Positions 15,682 to 56,589 of a stretch of 64,000 bases of DNA are shown here, piece after piece (within the stretch, counting starts at the first letter, position 1; each line of letters begins with the position of its first letter). Origin of the DNA: Escherichia phage UGJNEcP3; sequence record OV876907; one strand, given 5' to 3'. The notes below the pieces were generated by a model. It worked only from the letters and a program-made list of their open reading frames with translations. It had not been told where the DNA came from and did not search any database. The position numbers and the translations under genes were made by a program.

Positions 15682-17057
15682 AGAGACTCCAAATCTTTAA
15701 CATACTCAGTTACAACATCAGTGGTTTTCCAATATTGATGCTCTTCTTTCTTAGCCTTGGCTTCGAGGGCCAGTTTCTTGGCTTCGTCAGAAGTGATATG
15801 GAAAATGTTCATGGCCACTAGTTTATCGGCATATTCGCCATAGACTTTATTACCGGTCAATTCTTCGGTTAAAACCTTACGGGTCTTACCTTGGATAACC
15901 ACTACACCATCAATAACATCTTTGATAAATGTGGCTTTAGCCAATGCTAGTTTGAAAGCTTCTTCGGTTTCGATGATTTTACCATCAATACGTTTTTGTA
16001 CAAAGGTCTTACGGACCTCAACGAAATCACGAATCAGTTCAACTACATCTTCGTAAACCTTAAGTTTACCTTTTTCATTAATGACGGTCAGGTTTTGTGA
16101 ACGACGTTCGATTAACCCGAAGTCCTTCATGAGTTTTTCGTGTTTCTTATCTTCATCGGTAGGCAATTCATATTCTTTACGAATCTTAACCTTGAAGCCA
16201 AAACCGTTCTCGTCACAGTCATCATCATATGTGATGTACCCTTTGTCTTCCAGAGGGTCTAATACCTTAGCCACATATGTTTCACGGTCATATTTGTATG
16301 GGATTTCCGTGATATGCATTTGGGTTCGAGATGTGAACTTATACGTTCCACGAATCTCATAACTACCTGGTTCAATTTCAACAACTTCACCTCGGAATTC
16401 AGGATAAGCCACTTTAGGCTTGGTTACTCGTTTTTCCTGAAGAACTTGCAATACAGCTTTCTTAACAGAATCAAAACTATGAGGAAGAATATTAGTTGCA
16501 TAACCAGTTGCAATACCGGAAATACCATTAAGAAGAACAGTAGGAATAATAGGCAGATAAAAAGCCGGTGGCTTATGTTCGACATCCGCATGAACCGGAG
16601 CATATTCTGTGTCCTTATAAACTTTTGCAAAGTTACTTCCGATACGAGCAAAAATATAACGAGAGGCTGCAGCCTTTTGAACCAATCGAGAACCGAAGTT
16701 ACCTTGACCGTCTAACAATGGATAGTTGTTGTTCCATGTGTTAGCCATCAAAGCCCCTGCTTCCTGAGCAGAACCTTCACCATGGTGATATCCAAGGTCG
16801 GCTACGCCACCAGCAATAGAAGCTAGTTTGTGGAATTTTTCTTTATTACCACGAGCCATATCAAGACAACGAGCAACTACAAAACGTTGTACAGGTTTAA
16901 AGCCGTCAATCATATTTGGAATGGCTCGGTTTTCGACAGTATACATTGCATAAGCCAATGCTTCGTTGTCGATAATACTTTTTAAGTCACGACGAGTGAA
17001 AGAATCATCGTAAACATCTAAAGCCTGTTTAAAAAGGGTATCAATTACATCAGCCAT
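15678..17057 (-). CDS. 52: DNA topoisomerase II medium subunit gp52
   Basis: 459 aa; GyrA-type N-terminus (AMYTVENRAIPNMIDGFKPVQR), T4 gp52 size and position. Confidence 0.9.
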   Translation of the reverse strand: MADVIDTLFKQALDVYDDSFTRRDLKSIIDNEALAYAMYTVENRAIPNMIDGFKPVQRFVVARCLDMARGNKEKFHKLASIAGGVADLGYHHGEGSAQEAGALMANTWNNNYPLLDGQGNFGSRLVQKAAASRYIFARIGSNFAKVYKDTEYAPVHADVEHKPPAFYLPIIPTVLLNGISGIATGYATNILPHSFDSVKKAVLQVLQEKRVTKPKVAYPEFRGEVVEIEPGSYEIRGTYKFTSRTQMHITEIPYKYDRETYVAKVLDPLEDKGYITYDDDCDENGFGFKVKIRKEYELPTDEDKKHEKLMKDFGLIERRSQNLTVINEKGKLKVYEDVVELIRDFVEVRKTFVQKRIDGKIIETEEAFKLALAKATFIKDVIDGVVVIQGKTRKVLTEELTGNKVYGEYADKLVAMNIFHITSDEAKKLALEAKAKKEEHQYWKTTDVVTEYVKDLESL

Positions 17058-17202: not shown

Positions 17203-17356
17203 TTTTAATCATCTTAAGTAAACCGACAGAAGTAGAAAGAACCCAGCCAATAAACAGAAAACTTAAGAATACCGGACCAGGGGCCCACACACCTAAAAAG
17301 AAGCAAACTGAACAGACTATAGCCATAATAAGTTCAATAAAAACTAGGATAACCAT
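17195..17356 (-). CDS. ac: Ac-like 53-aa membrane protein
   Basis: ATG 17354-17356 with GAGGA SD; two hydrophobic segments; position between stp and 52 as T4 ac. Confidence 0.5.
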   Translation of the reverse strand: MVILVFIELIMAIVCSVCFFLGVWAPGPVFLSFLFIGWVLSTSVGLLKMIKND

Positions 17357-17366
17357 ATTTTCCTCA

Positions 17367-17444
17367 TTAGCGTCCGAAGACGCCTTTAGTTTTAAGATTG
17401 TTACGATAGAACTGCATCACATGCTCGTTATGGAAATTACTCAT
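17367..17444 (-). CDS. stp: Stp peptide (25 aa)
   Basis: ATG overlaps ndd stop (TAATG); [25 protein letters not shown] matches T4 Stp as recalled. Confidence 0.75.
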
Positions 17445-17893
17445 TAGTATGCCTGCAGAATGAATTTAAAGTTATCAGCCAACATGCGGTTCATTTCTTC
17501 CAGTGTCTGGAGGTCGGAACTATGATTGCGGGTGAAAGCCATTGCAATTTGACCCTTACCAAAACCGGTGGTCAGAGGTTTCATCTTAGAAGCTGGTACA
17601 TAAAGAACTTCATACACAACACCGTTCACTGCCATGGTGCGAGCTGATTGAGAACGTTTCTTACGAATGTTAGCCACGATGCCATCAAGACCTTGGGCCG
17701 AACGTTGATTACCGACATAAAAACGAGCAGCTACGACACGAGAATCAGCTCCACCTTTAACAAAGAAGTAGAAGCCTGGCTGAGCAGAGATTTCTTTAGA
17801 AGGTTTACCATTTTGGTATTCACCGTTCTTAACATAAGCAACAGTAGTAGCACCAGCAGACAGAACGTTACGGCGAGTCATATAAGTATTCAT
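17444..17893 (-). CDS. ndd: nucleoid disruption protein Ndd
   Basis: 149 aa; ...[10 protein letters not shown]...[25 protein letters not shown]...[20 protein letters not shown] matches T4 Ndd (memory). Confidence 0.9.
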
Positions 17894-17942
17894 ATCAATT
17901 TCCTCAGTAGATTAATGTTTTGTTATCCGGTCAACGAGAACC

Positions 17943-19355: not shown

Positions 19356-19369
19356 AATATTTTCCTCTC

Positions 19370-19408
19370 GTGTAGTTGATAGGAAGATAGTAACACCATC
19401 CATGGCGT
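19370..19408 (-). promoter_or_regulatory. early promoter
   Basis: GTTTAC(19400-19405), 18 bp, gTGtTACTAT, CTTCCTATCAACTAC box. Confidence 0.55.
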
Positions 19409-19431
19409 ATGTAAACACTTATTTTAAAAAA

Positions 19432-20013
19432 TTATAAGGCGAGATACCAGCCGTTGTAATTGCTCTTACGGACTAGCTTTGTGATGGCTTCTCTGTCGCC
19501 AGAGAACTTAGGAGTGAACAGGACGTCGCCTGCCTCATTTACTGAAGTGTCGAATATAATTATACAGTCTGCAACTTTATGATTCAAGAGCGGTCCCAGG
19601 TTAATCCCTGTTCCATAAGGGAAGTCACCGGAGTATCCTGTAGTACAGGAAATCCACTTAGAATCTGATTGATGGGTCTTGACCTCTACACGTAGTCCAC
19701 AATACATAGGATGAGCTAAAACATCCCATGCATAGGTATAAGGGTCGTCATGGTCTTCCAGACCACTGTTAACATATCCTTTCAACCAATCAGCCACCAT
19801 ATACTCGGCATACGTTGCAATGACACACCGAGTCAATACTTCTTTCTTATCTTGGGACGGGTCTTGGCTTAAGGAATACAGTACGGTATCCTTAATCTTA
19901 ACCTTCATTTCGCCTGTTAAATCAGATGTCTTCAGGGTAAATGTCGGCATCGCTGCCAATCGGAGTAGTCCCGGGTTCGTCTTCACCATAAATGCCTCGA
20001 ATATGAAGTTCAC
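19432..20013 (-). CDS. hypothetical protein at the denB position (start uncertain)
   Basis: 193-aa ORF; upstream part overlaps next ORF so true start is probably an internal ATG (19950 or 19908); DenB identity unverified. Confidence 0.45.
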   Translation of the reverse strand: MNFIFEAFMVKTNPGLLRLAAMPTFTLKTSDLTGEMKVKIKDTVLYSLSQDPSQDKKEVLTRCVIATYAEYMVADWLKGYVNSGLEDHDDPYTYAWDVLAHPMYCGLRVEVKTHQSDSKWISCTTGYSGDFPYGTGINLGPLLNHKVADCIIIFDTSVNEAGDVLFTPKFSGDREAITKLVRKSNYNGWYLAL

Positions 20014-35859: not shown

Positions 35860-36102
35860 TTAAACTCCAGGTGATACAGGAGTCGGCGTGAACATTGCTG
35901 CGTTCTTGGTCTTCCAGTCAGCAGCATCAGTCACTACGGTTGAGTAGGCTGCAACGGCCGAAGGAAAAGTCTGATAATGAGCATTGGCAATACGGTGCTC
36001 GTTCGAATAGATTTCAAACGGAACTGATACTTCAACACCTTTAACTTCTTTACCTTCACCAGCTGGATGCGTAAAGGTTTTTATATTAACGAAACCACCC
36101 AT
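35860..36102 (-). CDS. soc: small outer capsid protein Soc
   Basis: 80 aa; ...VNIKTF......HYQTFPS..AAYSTV... matches T4 Soc (memory). Confidence 0.85.
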   Translation of the reverse strand: MGGFVNIKTFTHPAGEGKEVKGVEVSVPFEIYSNEHRIANAHYQTFPSAVAAYSTVVTDAADWKTKNAAMFTPTPVSPGV

Positions 36103-36133: not shown

Positions 36134-36141
36134 TATTTATA
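36134..36141 (-). promoter_or_regulatory. T4-type late promoter TATAAATA for soc
   Basis: minus-sense TATAAATA ~30 bp upstream of soc ATG. Confidence 0.65.
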
Positions 36142-36144
36142 TCA

Positions 36145-36666
36145 TTAATAACCACGGTCCTGACGAGCAAAGTTCTCGGCATTTTTCAGATAATACAGTT
36201 TAAAGATTTCTTCTGCAGTAAGTCCAAGACCCTGGAACATATTCAGAACAAAGTGCAGAATATCAATCATTTCGAATTTAATTTCGAGTTGGTCTTCAGG
36301 AGACAACTCGTCGATACGACGATTACGGAATTCAGCATGCTGAGCTTTCCAAGGCTTCCACACACTAGAGGCTGCTTTTTCACCGTTGGACATACCGCCA
36401 AGAGAAGTCAGCAGTTCACGGAATTCATCGTCAATATAATCTTTCTGGTTGCGAAGCCAATCGACGACTTGACCTGCGGTAGCCAGTTCATCAGGATTAG
36501 AGTTGAATTCTGATTTTTCGGTAGCCAGGCGAACCTGTAAAGATTTCTGCATATCAAGCATAACTTGCAGAGGGTCTTTATCTTCATGAATCAGAGCATT
36601 AAAATAAGCTTCCTCAGCTTTATCAACACCAGAAATCAAACCACTACATTCGTTAAAAAATGCCAT
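36145..36666 (-). CDS. 56: dCTPase/dUTPase (MazG-like) gp56
   Basis: 173 aa; size, position (between soc and 61) and helical NTP-pyrophosphatase character. Confidence 0.8.
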   Translation of the reverse strand: MAFFNECSGLISGVDKAEEAYFNALIHEDKDPLQVMLDMQKSLQVRLATEKSEFNSNPDELATAGQVVDWLRNQKDYIDDEFRELLTSLGGMSNGEKAASSVWKPWKAQHAEFRNRRIDELSPEDQLEIKFEMIDILHFVLNMFQGLGLTAEEIFKLYYLKNAENFARQDRGY

Positions 36667-36670
36667 TATA

Positions 36671-37327
36671 TTATTTCCTATTAAAGTTTTCTATCATTCG
36701 TCGATAACAAATATCAGGATATCCATTATCAACAGCTATTTTATTAAATTTGGTGCGTTTAGGTTTATTATTGTAAACCCATAATTCATAAAGCATATCG
36801 TAACTATTCCATATTTCTCCACGCCTAGGATTTGGCAAACCATATCGAGGGGAATCTTTACCACTAAATCTTCCTTTTCTAGCTTTACTCATATTGGCCT
36901 TGGCTTCATCAGATATAATTTTATCTTTATGAGCCAGGCGCATTTTGGCTTTAGTTTCTTCAGGAGTTTTCATCCCTCTAATCCAGGAAGGTTTACCAAA
37001 CATCGGGTTATTTTTTCCCGAAAATGCTTTAGCGTTATTTTCTCTTAACGTGGCTATAGTTCTACTAGTTAATTTAACTCCTTTATTATATCTCATTAAA
37101 TTAACAGCATAATGTAGACCTTTTACTTCGGGATATATTTTTGTTAAAAGCCTATGAGCTACAAAGTGTTCTCTTGGCAATAAAGCAACTAAATTGTTTT
37201 TATCATCAGAACCATTCATACATCTAGGTATAACATGGTGTTCTTCCGTATAATACGATAAAGACCGCTTAGAACCTCTTAATTTTCCTTTAGATATTAA
37301 TTCCTGGTATATTTTTTCGTAATTCAT
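36671..37327 (-). CDS. HNH homing endonuclease with NUMOD3-like repeats
   Basis: 218 aa; HNH core EEHHVIPRCMNGSDDKNNLVALLPREHFVAH; repeated GKNNPMFGK / GKDSPRYG modules; between 56 and 61. Confidence 0.8.
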   Translation of the reverse strand: MNYEKIYQELISKGKLRGSKRSLSYYTEEHHVIPRCMNGSDDKNNLVALLPREHFVAHRLLTKIYPEVKGLHYAVNLMRYNKGVKLTSRTIATLRENNAKAFSGKNNPMFGKPSWIRGMKTPEETKAKMRLAHKDKIISDEAKANMSKARKGRFSGKDSPRYGLPNPRRGEIWNSYDMLYELWVYNNKPKRTKFNKIAVDNGYPDICYRRMIENFNRK

Positions 37328-37329
37328 GG

Positions 37330-37360
37330 GATAATTGTATCATTAATTTGTAAAGCAAGT
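37330..37360 (-). promoter_or_regulatory. possible MotA-dependent middle promoter for the HNH gene
   Basis: minus-sense TTGCTTTA MotA-box-like motif ~12 bp upstream of TACAAT. Confidence 0.4.
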
Positions 37361-37368
37361 TATAAATA
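37361..37368 (+). promoter_or_regulatory. late promoter TATAAATA for plus-strand small ORF
   Basis: exact TATAAATA 22 bp upstream of ATG 37390. Confidence 0.5.
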
Positions 37369-37389
37369 TTAATTTAACAGGAGGATAAC

Positions 37390-37590
37390 ATGGGCAGTAT
37401 TTTTTACCAAATCTGGAAATTGGCCGAAAAGAAAGACAAGAAAATGATGTTAGGTTTTCTTGCGCTAGACGTATTCCTTTGGAATCTTTTAGTAGTTCCT
37501 GTAGCCGCTAGCCAAGGGGTAATTTTACCAGCGGTTACAATGGAACACGTATTAAGCATAATTGGATTCTTTAGCGGAGTTCCTGTCTAA
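37390..37590 (+). CDS. small membrane protein (66 aa), opposite strand to neighbours
   Basis: AGGAGG SD 6 nt before ATG; hydrophobic segments; own late-promoter motif. Confidence 0.5.
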   Translation: MGSIFYQIWKLAEKKDKKMMLGFLALDVFLWNLLVVPVAASQGVILPAVTMEHVLSIIGFFSGVPV

Positions 37591-38615
37591 ATTTTAGAAT
37601 ATTTTGAAAGCCTCATTTTTGCCATTAACCCTTGGGCTATATTAGCTTTCATATACGCCAATATATCATTTATATCAGCTTTATCTTTCATAACCATATC
37701 ATTTATATCTTTAGAAGGCCATGGAGCCTTGTCCCAGAATAGGACCCTTTCGCCGGCATCAACTAATCGTTGCATACGCTTAATTGTGTCAGGATGACGG
37801 GGTTCATTGTCCATTACCCAAGCACGAGTTTCTTTACATGGAACCATAGCCAAGTCCAACGACCCACCAGTAATTGCTATTGCATTAGGTACGAATAATG
37901 AATCAATAGGACCTTCCATTACCCACACCAATTGACGTTCGTCAACTGTATCCATTCCATATATTTTTGTAGCTTGGTCATGAGCTTTTATTGTAATATA
38001 TTTTTGTGGAGCATCTTTACGCAAGGCTCGGCCCTGAAAACTTTCAATTTGTTTATTCTTATTGAAAATTGGAATAACCAAACGTGGTTCAGGCATTTCT
38101 TTGGAATAGGTCCCTGGATTCACAGAGTTAACTAATGCTGGCCATTCTTTAGTAAACCATAACCGATTCCATTTATTTTCAGGAATGCACCGCAGAGTTA
38201 CATACTTAATAATAGGATGGTCTTTCGGCATTCTATCTAATCGTTCACAGAAATTAAGCTTTTCAATGACAGGCATCTTAGCTTTAATTTTTTCAGATAT
38301 CTCCACCTTAGGTGCAGCTTGTCTCCCAAACGATTGCTCTTTATGTTTCTCAAGAATATATTCGCGATATAAATCAGGCTCATATTCGTATAGGTACTTC
38401 TTAATTCCTGCCGAATAATCACAGTTAAAACAGTGCAGCATTACGGAGCCATCATTAGCTGGATAGGCCCAAAAACGAGCTTTGTTCTCATCTTTTAGGG
38501 AGTCGCCACATACACGACAACGACAGTTTAATTTAAAATCACTACCGGTTACTTGTCTGAATTTAGGTTGGTAATTCAAGGCACGTACAGCAAATTCTCT
38601 ATCGACATATGACAT
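37587..38615 (-). CDS. 61: DNA primase gp61
   Basis: 342 aa; N-terminal zinc ribbon CRCRVCGDS...HCFNC; size identical to T4 gp61. Confidence 0.9.
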   Translation of the reverse strand: MSYVDREFAVRALNYQPKFRQVTGSDFKLNCRCRVCGDSLKDENKARFWAYPANDGSVMLHCFNCDYSAGIKKYLYEYEPDLYREYILEKHKEQSFGRQAAPKVEISEKIKAKMPVIEKLNFCERLDRMPKDHPIIKYVTLRCIPENKWNRLWFTKEWPALVNSVNPGTYSKEMPEPRLVIPIFNKNKQIESFQGRALRKDAPQKYITIKAHDQATKIYGMDTVDERQLVWVMEGPIDSLFVPNAIAITGGSLDLAMVPCKETRAWVMDNEPRHPDTIKRMQRLVDAGERVLFWDKAPWPSKDINDMVMKDKADINDILAYMKANIAQGLMAKMRLSKYSKI

Positions 38616-38831
38616 TGTTTTTCCTTGGGCTCTAAATTAATAGAGCCATTATATCATTCGTTTTCGGATTTTTCTTTACGCTTTTTGGATGGGATTTGTT
38701 CAGGCCCTTTGTTGACGACTGCACCTGAGGTAGTTCCGGAGGCAATATTAGATGGGTTTCCACCTGCATCACCTGCGACCATATCTTCGTTCATAACTTC
38801 TTTAAAAGATTTCATAGGCTCCTGGCCTTAT

Positions 38832-39023
38832 TTATATTACGAAAATAGCTTTATCGCCATTTGCATCAGTGACTTCGTACGTATCTTCGTGGTAAAGTGG
38901 GATAATCCAGGTCACACCATCATCAGCAATAACATGGATAGCTTCTTGGTCTTTTGATACGATTTCATATTCTTCGAACAACTCGAATACAGAAATCTTA
39001 GAGCCCGTACACATTGCACTCAT
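38832..39023 (-). CDS. hypothetical protein (63 aa)
   Basis: early-strand ORF, acidic. Confidence 0.5.
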   Translation of the reverse strand: MSAMCTGSKISVFELFEEYEIVSKDQEAIHVIADDGVTWIIPLYHEDTYEVTDANGDKAIFVI

Positions 39024-55714: not shown

Positions 55715-55906
55715 TTAATCAAAGTACTCGTAGACAAACCATGCCGGATTTCTATTTGACATGATTTTATCATATTCTGACTTAAAAGCATTTCGGAGAT
55801 ATTCTTCAGTAACAAGATGCTCATCTCCAGAGAAGTTGTTAACTAAAACGTATCTCTTTATTTCTGGAAAGGCCAACAAATGCTGGCCTGTTATAAAATC
55901 ACTCAT
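55715..55906 (-). CDS. hypothetical protein (63 aa)
   Basis: early-strand ORF abutting the GIY-YIG gene. Confidence 0.5.
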   Translation of the reverse strand: MSDFITGQHLLAFPEIKRYVLVNNFSGDEHLVTEEYLRNAFKSEYDKIMSNRNPAWFVYEYFD

Positions 55907-56589
55907 TATGAAGCATCCTTTAATTTACAATTATCAAAGTGCCATCGTTTCATAATGTTGTTAGAGCCAATTTTATCACAATATGGGCACTTTACAGTTG
56001 GTCTGCTTTTAGCTTTTGCAGATTGTTTGCTTTTCATAGCCTGTTTTGCTTCGTCAGACCTAGAATTAAGGGCTATAGAAATTTTATCCCTTGTTTCTTG
56101 GCTATGAGTTTTTCCGAACATAGGGTTGTTCTCAGGCAAATATGTACCATTTCTTATATTACTCTGACGAATTTTTTCTATATGTTCTTTAGATTTATTT
56201 CTTAGCTCTAGGCATTTAGATTTCTTTCTAGTTTTAAAAAGGTTTTCATAAAATGAATACGGTCTATTTTTAGCAGCTATACTCTGTTTAAGTCTGGTTT
56301 CCTCTTTTATAAAAGGTGCGGCATTACCTCCTAAAGAAATATTATATGTAAGAGGGTTCTTTATAAATTCCTCATTGACTATAATTCTTTCCATTTGGAT
56401 AGCCTCTTCTCTGGTATCAAAATTATAAAGTATTTCCTTTCTATGATTTTCCAAACCATATTTTTTAATAGAAGCTTTAATATATAAACCAGAGCCCATA
56501 TACGAATCTTTAATATTTTCAGTACTATGTATCCCTACATAGTACTTATTATTAACTAAATTTATTATTTTGTAAACAAGATGTCTCAT
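55906..56589 (-). CDS. GIY-YIG homing endonuclease (Seg-like) with NUMOD3-like module
   Basis: 227 aa; VYKIINLVNNKYYVGIHS...YMGSG (GIY...YIG core); ENNPMFGKTHSQETRDKIS; C-terminal CPYC; between 45/rpbA and 46. Confidence 0.8.
   Translation of the reverse strand: MRHLVYKIINLVNNKYYVGIHSTENIKDSYMGSGLYIKASIKKYGLENHRKEILYNFDTREEAIQMERIIVNEEFIKNPLTYNISLGGNAAPFIKEETRLKQSIAAKNRPYSFYENLFKTRKKSKCLELRNKSKEHIEKIRQSNIRNGTYLPENNPMFGKTHSQETRDKISIALNSRSDEAKQAMKSKQSAKAKSRPTVKCPYCDKIGSNNIMKRWHFDNCKLKDAS

Follow-up and report, generated by a model that had tools for sequence, protein, structure and literature searches.

A stretch of 64,000 nucleotides (nt) from Escherichia phage UGJNEcP3 (sequence record OV876907; this whole stretch is referred to here as the window) carries, between dCTPase gene 56 and primase gene 61, a free-standing HNH homing endonuclease gene (HEG) and, next to it on the opposite strand, a small open reading frame (ORF) of 66 amino acids (aa). 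Comparison with related phages makes it highly probable that two independent elements stand side by side at this junction, namely an HEG that homes at the gene-56 site and an ancestral late gene for a membrane micro-protein. The HEG encodes 218 aa and occupies positions 36671–37327 (−), where it is recognized as an ORF and by Pfam, PHROG and motif matches. Gene 56, which encodes a dCTPase/NTP pyrophosphohydrolase, lies downstream at 36145–36666 (−; ORF, Pfam dUTPase_2, annotation in OV877765 and relatives), and primase gene 61 lies upstream at 37587–38615 (−; ORF, Pfam, annotation). The small ORF is found at 37390–37590 (+), and a profile match assigns it to PHROG 2024, a putative small membrane protein that is named dam.1 in phage T4T. 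It is positioned tail to tail with gene 61, with stop codons that overlap by 4 nt, and head to head with the HEG, at a distance of 62 nt.

An earlier note on this DNA had described the 218-aa HNH ORF between genes 56 and 61 as well as the 66-aa ORF with its AGGAGG Shine-Dalgarno sequence and exact late-promoter octamer, and both are found as described. Its description of the small ORF as the lone plus-strand gene of a block of about 50 kb agrees with the deposited annotation of the phage UGJNEcP4, in which this ORF is the only plus-strand coding sequence from the holin gene onward (OV877765, 164250–170590 plus 1–45000, equivalent to approximately 13.2–64 kb of the window and about 100 coding sequences). 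By contrast, the convergent arrangement proposed for the HEG and the small ORF is wrong, as this pair is divergent and it is with primase 61 that the small ORF converges.

The 2.7 kb around the locus are 100% identical to Escherichia phage UGJNEcP4 (OV877765.1), a JS98-like Dhakavirus (Straboviridae, Tevenvirinae), and 95–96% identical to IME08. JS98, EcWhh-1, WG01 and many others show 92–95% identity to the same query but match only about 75% of it, because one segment is missing there. The HEG insertion is present in 9 records, whereas dozens of relatives with 92–95% identity are devoid of exactly that segment. An alignment of the 56–61 junction with the HEG-less JS98, dhabil and AnYang reveals a net difference of 626 nt. 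The insertion point is located between the −10 hexamer of a middle promoter and the Shine-Dalgarno sequence of gene 56, and the insertion replaces the native gene-56 leader (TAACTTACTAAC...GAATTGAT) of about 25–35 nt. The proposal that the HEG is an inserted mobile gene is thus borne out by endonuclease-free alleles in JS98, dhabil, AnYang and many other phages.

The same HEG lineage is found at the same site in four genera: in Tequatrovirus Killian, Jiaodavirus 15882-5 and Kanagawavirus Kosakonia 305, gene 56 is directly preceded by a gene whose product is 73–78% identical to that of the window. A search with a concatenated HEG and gp56 query found both proteins adjacent in 79 phage records. 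As the HEG is present at an identity of at least 60% in 69 records, essentially all of its close relatives lie at the gene-56 site, and the spot directly upstream of gene 56 would be the fixed home of this lineage. Carriers amount to about 79 of about 1600 gp56-containing records. A scan of IMG/VR with the HEG retrieved 2 close copies only, and the equivalent scan with gp56 yielded the 79 loci that form the basis of the codon-8 and small-ORF census described below. In Shigella phage SF2-1, what looked like a remainder of the HEG joined to gene 56 was a spurious tblastn extension.

The window also retains the trace of a recent transfer. A block at 36542–37388 shows 5 mismatches in 847 nt with respect to IME08, and comprises the first 105–125 nt (approximately) of gene 56, the HEG, and some 35–60 nt of the promoter region. 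Divergence from IME08 is 0.6–0.9% within the block, in comparison with 10.6% in the rest of gene 56 and 4.5% in the primase. The HEG-less JS98 differs from the window at 2 of 225 positions in the small ORF (0.9%) and by 2.3% in the primase. The combination of a JS98-like primase/small-ORF side with an IME08-type HEG block is the signature of homing with co-conversion, and we infer that 36542–37388 was co-converted in a recent event of homing or recombination. Among the movements of the HEG suggested by the comparisons, this IME08/JS98-type event is the only one that appears clearly recent. The end of the IME08-like tract falls between 37361 and 37389, within the promoter and 5' leader of the small ORF, and the tract contains both the exact late octamer TATAAATA and a perfect MotA box. 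Phage VR5 carries the HEG, yet it keeps the JS98-type AATAAATA and TCGCTTTA. The suggestion that the small ORF marks the boundary of the mobile cassette is, therefore, correct in the trivial sense that the tract ends in its promoter and leader, but the small ORF itself is not linked to the cassette.

The HEG protein matches Pfam NUMOD3 with 28.6 bits (cutoff 20.4) at residues 100–112. A second NUMOD3-like core, GKDSPRYG at residues 156–163, is recognized by pattern only and is accompanied by a duplicated S/T-x-E-x-K-x-x-M helix. The two NUMOD3-like modules span residues ~100–134 and ~137–170, in agreement with the domain composition that had been read from the translation. The HNH motif (H30-H31...N45...H54/H58) is invariant in five members of the lineage and aligns with the HNH motif of McrA, and PHROG 655, annotated as 'homing endonuclease', is matched with E=2e-54. 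Weak matches to the HNH motif were found in the PDB for McrA (E~0.07–0.09) and for a group II intron maturase. The single-sequence AlphaFold model of the protein has a predicted local distance difference test (pLDDT) score of 35 and is unusable for fold comparison, and an NCBIfam search gave no match for either this protein or the 66-aa protein. Pairwise ratios of non-synonymous to synonymous substitution rates (dN/dS) across six HEG copies range between 0.06 and 0.19, showing that the protein is under purifying selection and is not decaying. On sequence criteria, the HEG is a Mob-type free-standing HNH homing endonuclease, a fresh member of a well-known kind. In the deposited annotation of UGJNEcP4 the gene appears just as a 303-nt 'hypothetical protein' (36671–36973; record 17309–17611); the full 657-nt ORF is intact, and its product is 99–100% identical to the 'MobE' of IME08.

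The organization of the locus resembles that of the free-standing endonuclease genes of T4. MobE is a promoterless HNH endonuclease that nicks the 5' region of the downstream gene at nt 122–126 (Wilson & Edgell 2009, PMC2790892), and other free-standing endonuclease genes of T4 likewise have no promoter and depend on resident ones, with SegF targeting gene 56 (Edgell, Gibb & Belfort 2010, PMC2988022). Like MobE at nrdA/nrdB, the HEG encodes a free-standing HNH protein, is promoterless, is preceded by a resident promoter and shows co-conversion of flanking markers, and it lies directly upstream of the gene whose 5' region is the target, or, for the HEG, the presumed target. Unlike MobE, it is located upstream of gene 56 and not between nrdA and nrdB, and its target is therefore different. 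At 218 aa, the HEG protein also exceeds MobE in length, and it has a conserved C-terminal domain and two NUMOD3-like modules. Searches for an internal terminator or a ribosome-binding-site (RBS) hairpin found neither, and in Dhakaviruses the HEG start codon abuts the promoter. MobE and the HEG protein share approximately 40% aa identity, over residues 1–169 only. The difference in site together with this identity value led us to reject the orthology implied by the 'mobE' label in IME08 and VR5 in favor of a paralogous lineage. With SegF, located at soc/56, the HEG has in common that it is a free-standing promoterless cassette homing near gene 56. SegF differs from it in belonging to the GIY-YIG family and in lying on the 3' side of gene 56, and a SegF homologue is found at the 56/soc junction of Dhakavirus AnYang.

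Transcription of the HEG appears to depend on a promoter that it does not own. A MotA box (TTGCTTTA, 37351–37358, −) is positioned 11 nt upstream of the −10 hexamer TACAAT (37334–37339, −) of a MotA-dependent middle promoter, which is identified both by its sequence and by its presence in relatives. Middle promoters of T4 conform to the consensus (a/t)(a/t)(a/t)TGCTT(t/c)A for the MotA box, followed after approximately 11–13 bp by a TAnnnT −10 element. The match in the window consists of aacTTGCTTTA, an 11-nt spacer and TACAAT, and a MotA-like activator and an AsiA-like anti-sigma factor are annotated in this phage. A MotA box and −10 element are also found upstream of gene 56 in the HEG-less JS98, dhabil, AnYang, SP18, CGG4-1 and WFL6982, the HEG-less genera with this gene-56 middle promoter being Dhaka-, Gapriver-, Gelderland- and Mosigviruses, and likewise in the dam–56 spacer of T4 and MX01. 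The homologous −10 hexamer reads TATAAT in JS98, dhabil, AnYang, MX01, T4, SP18 and CGG4-1. Since the promoter is found in HEG-less genomes, it is the resident promoter of gene 56, and the HEG is a promoterless cassette that borrows it. The middle promoter that had been noticed upstream of the HEG is thus present, but it does not form part of the insertion. The HEG would be transcribed together with gene 56 in the middle period, with an additional contribution of read-through from primase 61. Inside the HEG, a sigma-70-like promoter candidate at its 3' end (36693–36665) was discarded; its −10 element overlaps the gene-56 ATG, and such hits occur at chance level.

The translation signals of the HEG vary among genera. 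The Shine-Dalgarno sequence of gene 56, AGGAAA (36674–36679, −), is located inside the last HEG codons (AAT AGG AAA TAA TATA ATG), and its HEG-less counterpart is the native AAGGAAAAATATAATG. In the Dhakavirus version, the HEG ATG (A at 37327) begins at the seventh nt after TACAAT, so that a canonical transcription start would yield a leaderless mRNA, which is predicted for the HEG of Dhakaviruses. Such a leaderless middle transcript would be poorly translated, matching the tight down-regulation that is usual for homing endonuclease genes. No RBS-sequestering hairpin beyond shuffled controls was found upstream of the HEG ATG (z=0.47 and z=1.24 in the terminator/hairpin tests). In Killian and 15882-5 the HEG has a GTG start behind the retained native leader and Shine-Dalgarno sequence of gene 56. 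The HEG of Kosakonia 305 abuts the stop codon of the upstream ORF, which suggests that it is translationally coupled to that ORF. The lineage would thus be expressed in three contexts: leaderless in Dhakavirus, behind a borrowed leader and Shine-Dalgarno sequence in Tequatrovirus and Jiaodavirus, and through the suggested coupling in Kanagawavirus.

Allele comparison points to the 5' end of gene 56 as a candidate target. Codon 8 of the gene (Ser AGT, 36643–36645, −) represents a candidate target-immunity polymorphism, being AGT or AGC in HEG alleles and TCT or TCA in most HEG-less alleles. The AGY form is present in all five unique HEG-carrying sequences and in 16 of the 48 HEG-less sequences (Fisher p=0.007, uncorrected for phylogeny). 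In HEG-less phages, the gene-56 5' end is conserved even at silent sites (ATGGCNCAYTTTAAYGAATGTTCTCAACT). These features are suggestive of a homing target in the gene-56 5' region, with silent changes that would immunize the HEG-carrying allele. By analogy with T4 MobE and SegF, the endonuclease would nick or cut the HEG-free allele within the 5' end of gene 56 or close to it during mixed infection, and repair after the cut would copy the HEG plus flanking markers, leaving behind the IME08-like tract. The oriA point of the T4 record is placed at 16763, which is 22 nt inside gene 56 and coincides with codon 8. This match may be a coincidence, or it may explain the silent-site conservation that makes a good homing target.

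The small plus-strand ORF, on the other hand, is found whether the HEG is present or not. It is tail to tail with primase 61 in all loci examined, and its arrangement is unchanged in phages without the endonuclease, which belong to nine or more genera and include T4. Searches with tblastn retrieved 139 records with the window-type query and 698 with the T4-type query. The T4 copy, of 66 codons, is located at 17738–17938 (+) of NC_000866.4, with an AGGAGG Shine-Dalgarno sequence and the upstream sequence GATAAATATTAATTTAAAGGAGG. The RefSeq record NC_000866.4 has no coding sequence for it within the 309-bp dam–61 gap, whereas T4T (HM137666) annotates this ORF as dam.1. The window ORF has the same length, orientation and tail-to-tail position with primase 61 as T4T Dam.1. 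Both the window ORF (E=6.5e-28) and the T4 ORF (E=4.6e-31) match PHROG 2024, although the proteins are strongly diverged, and Tequatrovirus (T4-type) copies are not reached by tblastn from the window ORF at E<0.01. On these comparisons, the small ORF is an ancestral T-even gene that is independent of the HEG insertion.

Conservation of the small ORF is found at the protein level. Its dN/dS is 0.06–0.17 in close pairs, and the comparison with Marfa gives proportions of synonymous (pS) and non-synonymous (pN) differences of 0.80, which is saturated, and 0.13, respectively. Since a gene on the opposite strand is overlapped over 4 nt only, the constraint acts on the small ORF itself. Its length is conserved at 61–74 aa, and the residues W-N...P...G...P are invariant across 19 sequences. 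An AlphaFold model (pLDDT 75) is helical and membrane-like, with an N-terminus that is basic and amphipathic, one long hydrophobic helix (residues 14–41), predicted to span the membrane, and a short helix at the C-terminus. The product is most likely a late inner-membrane micro-protein. A profile search with the family against 1.84 billion representative proteins recovered 7 clusters only and found no link to any larger family, and in the census of the 79 gp56 loci the family is restricted to enterobacterial T-even genera. No paper found in the literature mentions T4 dam.1, and no ribosome-profiling or small-protein paper covering T4 was found. Shigella phage SP18 (Gaprivervirus) contains a full-length T4-type small ORF (locus L010, 2311–2508), followed by a truncated Dhaka-type copy (2525–2620), an arrangement also seen at three further Gaprivervirus loci. 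The truncated copy retains the C-terminal 31 aa and still abuts the primase stop codon; the double copy suggests an allele replacement or a tandem duplication at the locus.

Upstream of the small ORF, a late-promoter-like TATAAATA (37361–37368, +) is located 21 nt before the ATG, and the AGGAGG Shine-Dalgarno sequence (37379–37384, +) lies 5 nt before it, with (A)GGAGG conserved in relatives. All of the 14 diverse loci have a TAAATA core 18–28 nt upstream of the start codon, a motif with a background frequency of 0.00045 per nt, and the sequence around this core is otherwise unalignable across these loci. A gp55-like late sigma factor is annotated in this phage. The conserved core, together with the (A)GGAGG sequence, supports a gp55-type late promoter. 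The exact TATAAATA is confined to a subset of phages, the equivalent sequence being AATAAATA in JS98 and VR5 and GATAAATA in T4. The MotA box and the late octamer stand back to back with a 2-nt gap (37351–37368), and overlap in SP18 (TATTTATGCTTTA); this proximity may account for the variation of the octamer's first base among genera. As in the case of T4 soc, the small ORF is a small gene with TATAAATA inside an early/middle block; T4 soc is co-oriented with its early neighbours, whereas the small ORF is on the opposite strand and converges on the primase.

The convergence of the small ORF with gene 61 bears on the transcripts of both strands. No terminator or hairpin beyond shuffled controls was found after the small-ORF stop codon, so that the late transcript probably continues into gene 61 from its 3' side. 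The small-ORF transcript is thus likely to overlap the primase 61 mRNA, to whose 3' end it would be antisense as a by-product. Conversely, the early/middle read-through RNA from gene 61 to gene 56 carries the antisense of the small ORF. In T4, a differential RNA-sequencing preprint reports 150 transcription starts, of which 22 are antisense (bioRxiv 10.1101/2024.04.04.588121).

Other explanations of the locus were weighed against this pairing of a homing HEG with an independent late micro-gene. The small ORF and its late promoter could belong to, or pair with, the HEG cassette, either for antisense control or as the border of the element, as the earlier note had proposed. The two genes are physically adjacent, 62 nt apart, and the IME08-like tract acquired along with the HEG also includes the perfect MotA box and the exact TATAAATA. 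But the genes are divergent and their transcripts cannot overlap, leaving antisense control of the HEG unsupported; HEG-less phages of many genera, T4 included, also have the small ORF with its Shine-Dalgarno sequence and the TAAATA core; and VR5 combines the HEG with the JS98-type AATAAATA. We consider such a pairing extremely improbable. A different possibility is that the plus-strand late promoter is mainly regulatory, producing an antisense RNA to the gene-61 3' end and to the read-through transcript for a late shutdown of 61-HEG-56, with the ORF being secondary. This is compatible with the convergent overlap with gene 61, which is conserved as 4 nt at the stop codons in most genera, with the lack of a detectable terminator-like structure after the small ORF, and with the annotation of phage Moon, where a plus-strand terminator is placed only beyond the primase start. 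The overlap is nevertheless missing in Kp 15882-5 and CGG4-1, and the protein-level constraint on the ORF (pN 0.13 versus pS 0.80 with Marfa, a length of 61–74 aa, invariant residues and a strong Shine-Dalgarno sequence) argues for a coding function. Antisense action and protein coding are compatible with each other, the regulatory effect on gene 61 being purely putative here, and a mainly regulatory role seems unlikely.

A number of observations weigh against the preferred interpretation of a homing HEG beside a late micro-gene, and some of them would suit an HEG that is an inactive or domesticated relic, with a distribution produced by ancestral presence and repeated deletion and with no ongoing homing. 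The Dhakavirus copy is devoid of any Shine-Dalgarno sequence and of a leader, which could mean weak or no expression. The divergence of the HEG between genera (about 22–27% at the aa level) is similar to that of gp56, as might result if the gene had long been inherited vertically and been lost repeatedly. Some HEG-less genomes (three of the loci) have the gene-56 5' allele associated with the HEG, as expected after precise loss; AGY at codon 8 occurs in one third of HEG-less genomes and does not by itself define the target. The Pfam HNH match (PF01844) reaches 18.4 bits, below the gathering score of 21.4 (E=0.0025 in all five lineage members), and PDB searches with the HEG protein, both single-sequence and profile, returned no solved structure better than E=0.07. 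As for the late promoter, the octamer begins with T, A, G or C depending on the phage, this base being non-canonical in most relatives, including T4, and the window contains 5 copies of TATAAATA where 6.9 are expected, which is no enrichment; the evidence for the promoter thus lies in its position and conservation and not in its mere presence. Against the relic, the HEG is under strong purifying selection, with an invariant catalytic motif and invariant DNA-binding modules; the HEG block is 0.6% diverged from IME08 beside flanks that are 4.5–10.6% diverged from it, which indicates recent lateral movement; and the presence of the HEG in only about 79 of about 1600 gp56 records would require very many independent precise deletions. 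We regard a relic as improbable.

The homing HEG represents a routine but clean case of intronless homing, with one HNH lineage at one site in four genera, and the sharply bounded tract would make the UGJNEcP4/JS98 pair convenient for measuring how an HNH endonuclease homes beside a promoter of the replication-origin type. The more useful by-product is the small ORF, a conserved and apparently late membrane micro-gene next to the primase in hundreds of T-even genomes. Its family is already catalogued as hypothetical (PHROG 2024), and the locus is largely ordinary. What residual interest there is lies in this late micro-gene, which T4 shares, and in the prediction of a leaderless endonuclease mRNA. 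That the locus joins all of an overlooked late inner-membrane micro-protein gene, an antisense shut-off of gene 61 and of the 61-to-56 read-through, and a leaderless HEG mRNA in Dhakaviruses is rather doubtful.

Between the small ORF and the promoter of gene 56 lies a slot with variable cargo, as seen at eight of the loci compared. It is empty in JS98, and it holds the HNH endonuclease in the window phage, dam in T4, so that the T4 dam gene sits where the HEG is found here, and dam plus a 186-aa ORF in MX01. In ZX14, PEi26, Moon, Marfa and Kosakonia 305 the slot contains an ORF of approximately 94 aa, which is accompanied by a 252-aa ORF in Marfa, by two small ORFs in Moon and by the endonuclease in Kosakonia 305. 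The other side of gene 56 is occupied in T4 and AnYang by a SegF-type GIY-YIG endonuclease.

A second annotated homing endonuclease gene is found at approximately 55906–56589 of the window (record 36544–37227), directly upstream of the SbcC-like gene 46. The linear record OV877765 is 127 nt longer than the circular unit in the window, as deduced from coordinate offsets (window 19363–19489), and the surplus is probably an assembly overlap at the ends of the record. Two further exact copies of TATAAATA lie near the locus. One of them (38829–38836, −) is positioned 13 nt upstream of a 61.1-like ORF (38654–38815), and a small hairpin, AGGCTCCTGGCCT (38816–38828), covers the Shine-Dalgarno sequence of this ORF, an arrangement that could act as a late-promoter/hairpin translational switch, as known for several T4 genes. 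The other (36134–36141, −) is located upstream of soc (35860–36102), which fits with soc being a late gene within the early region, as in T4.

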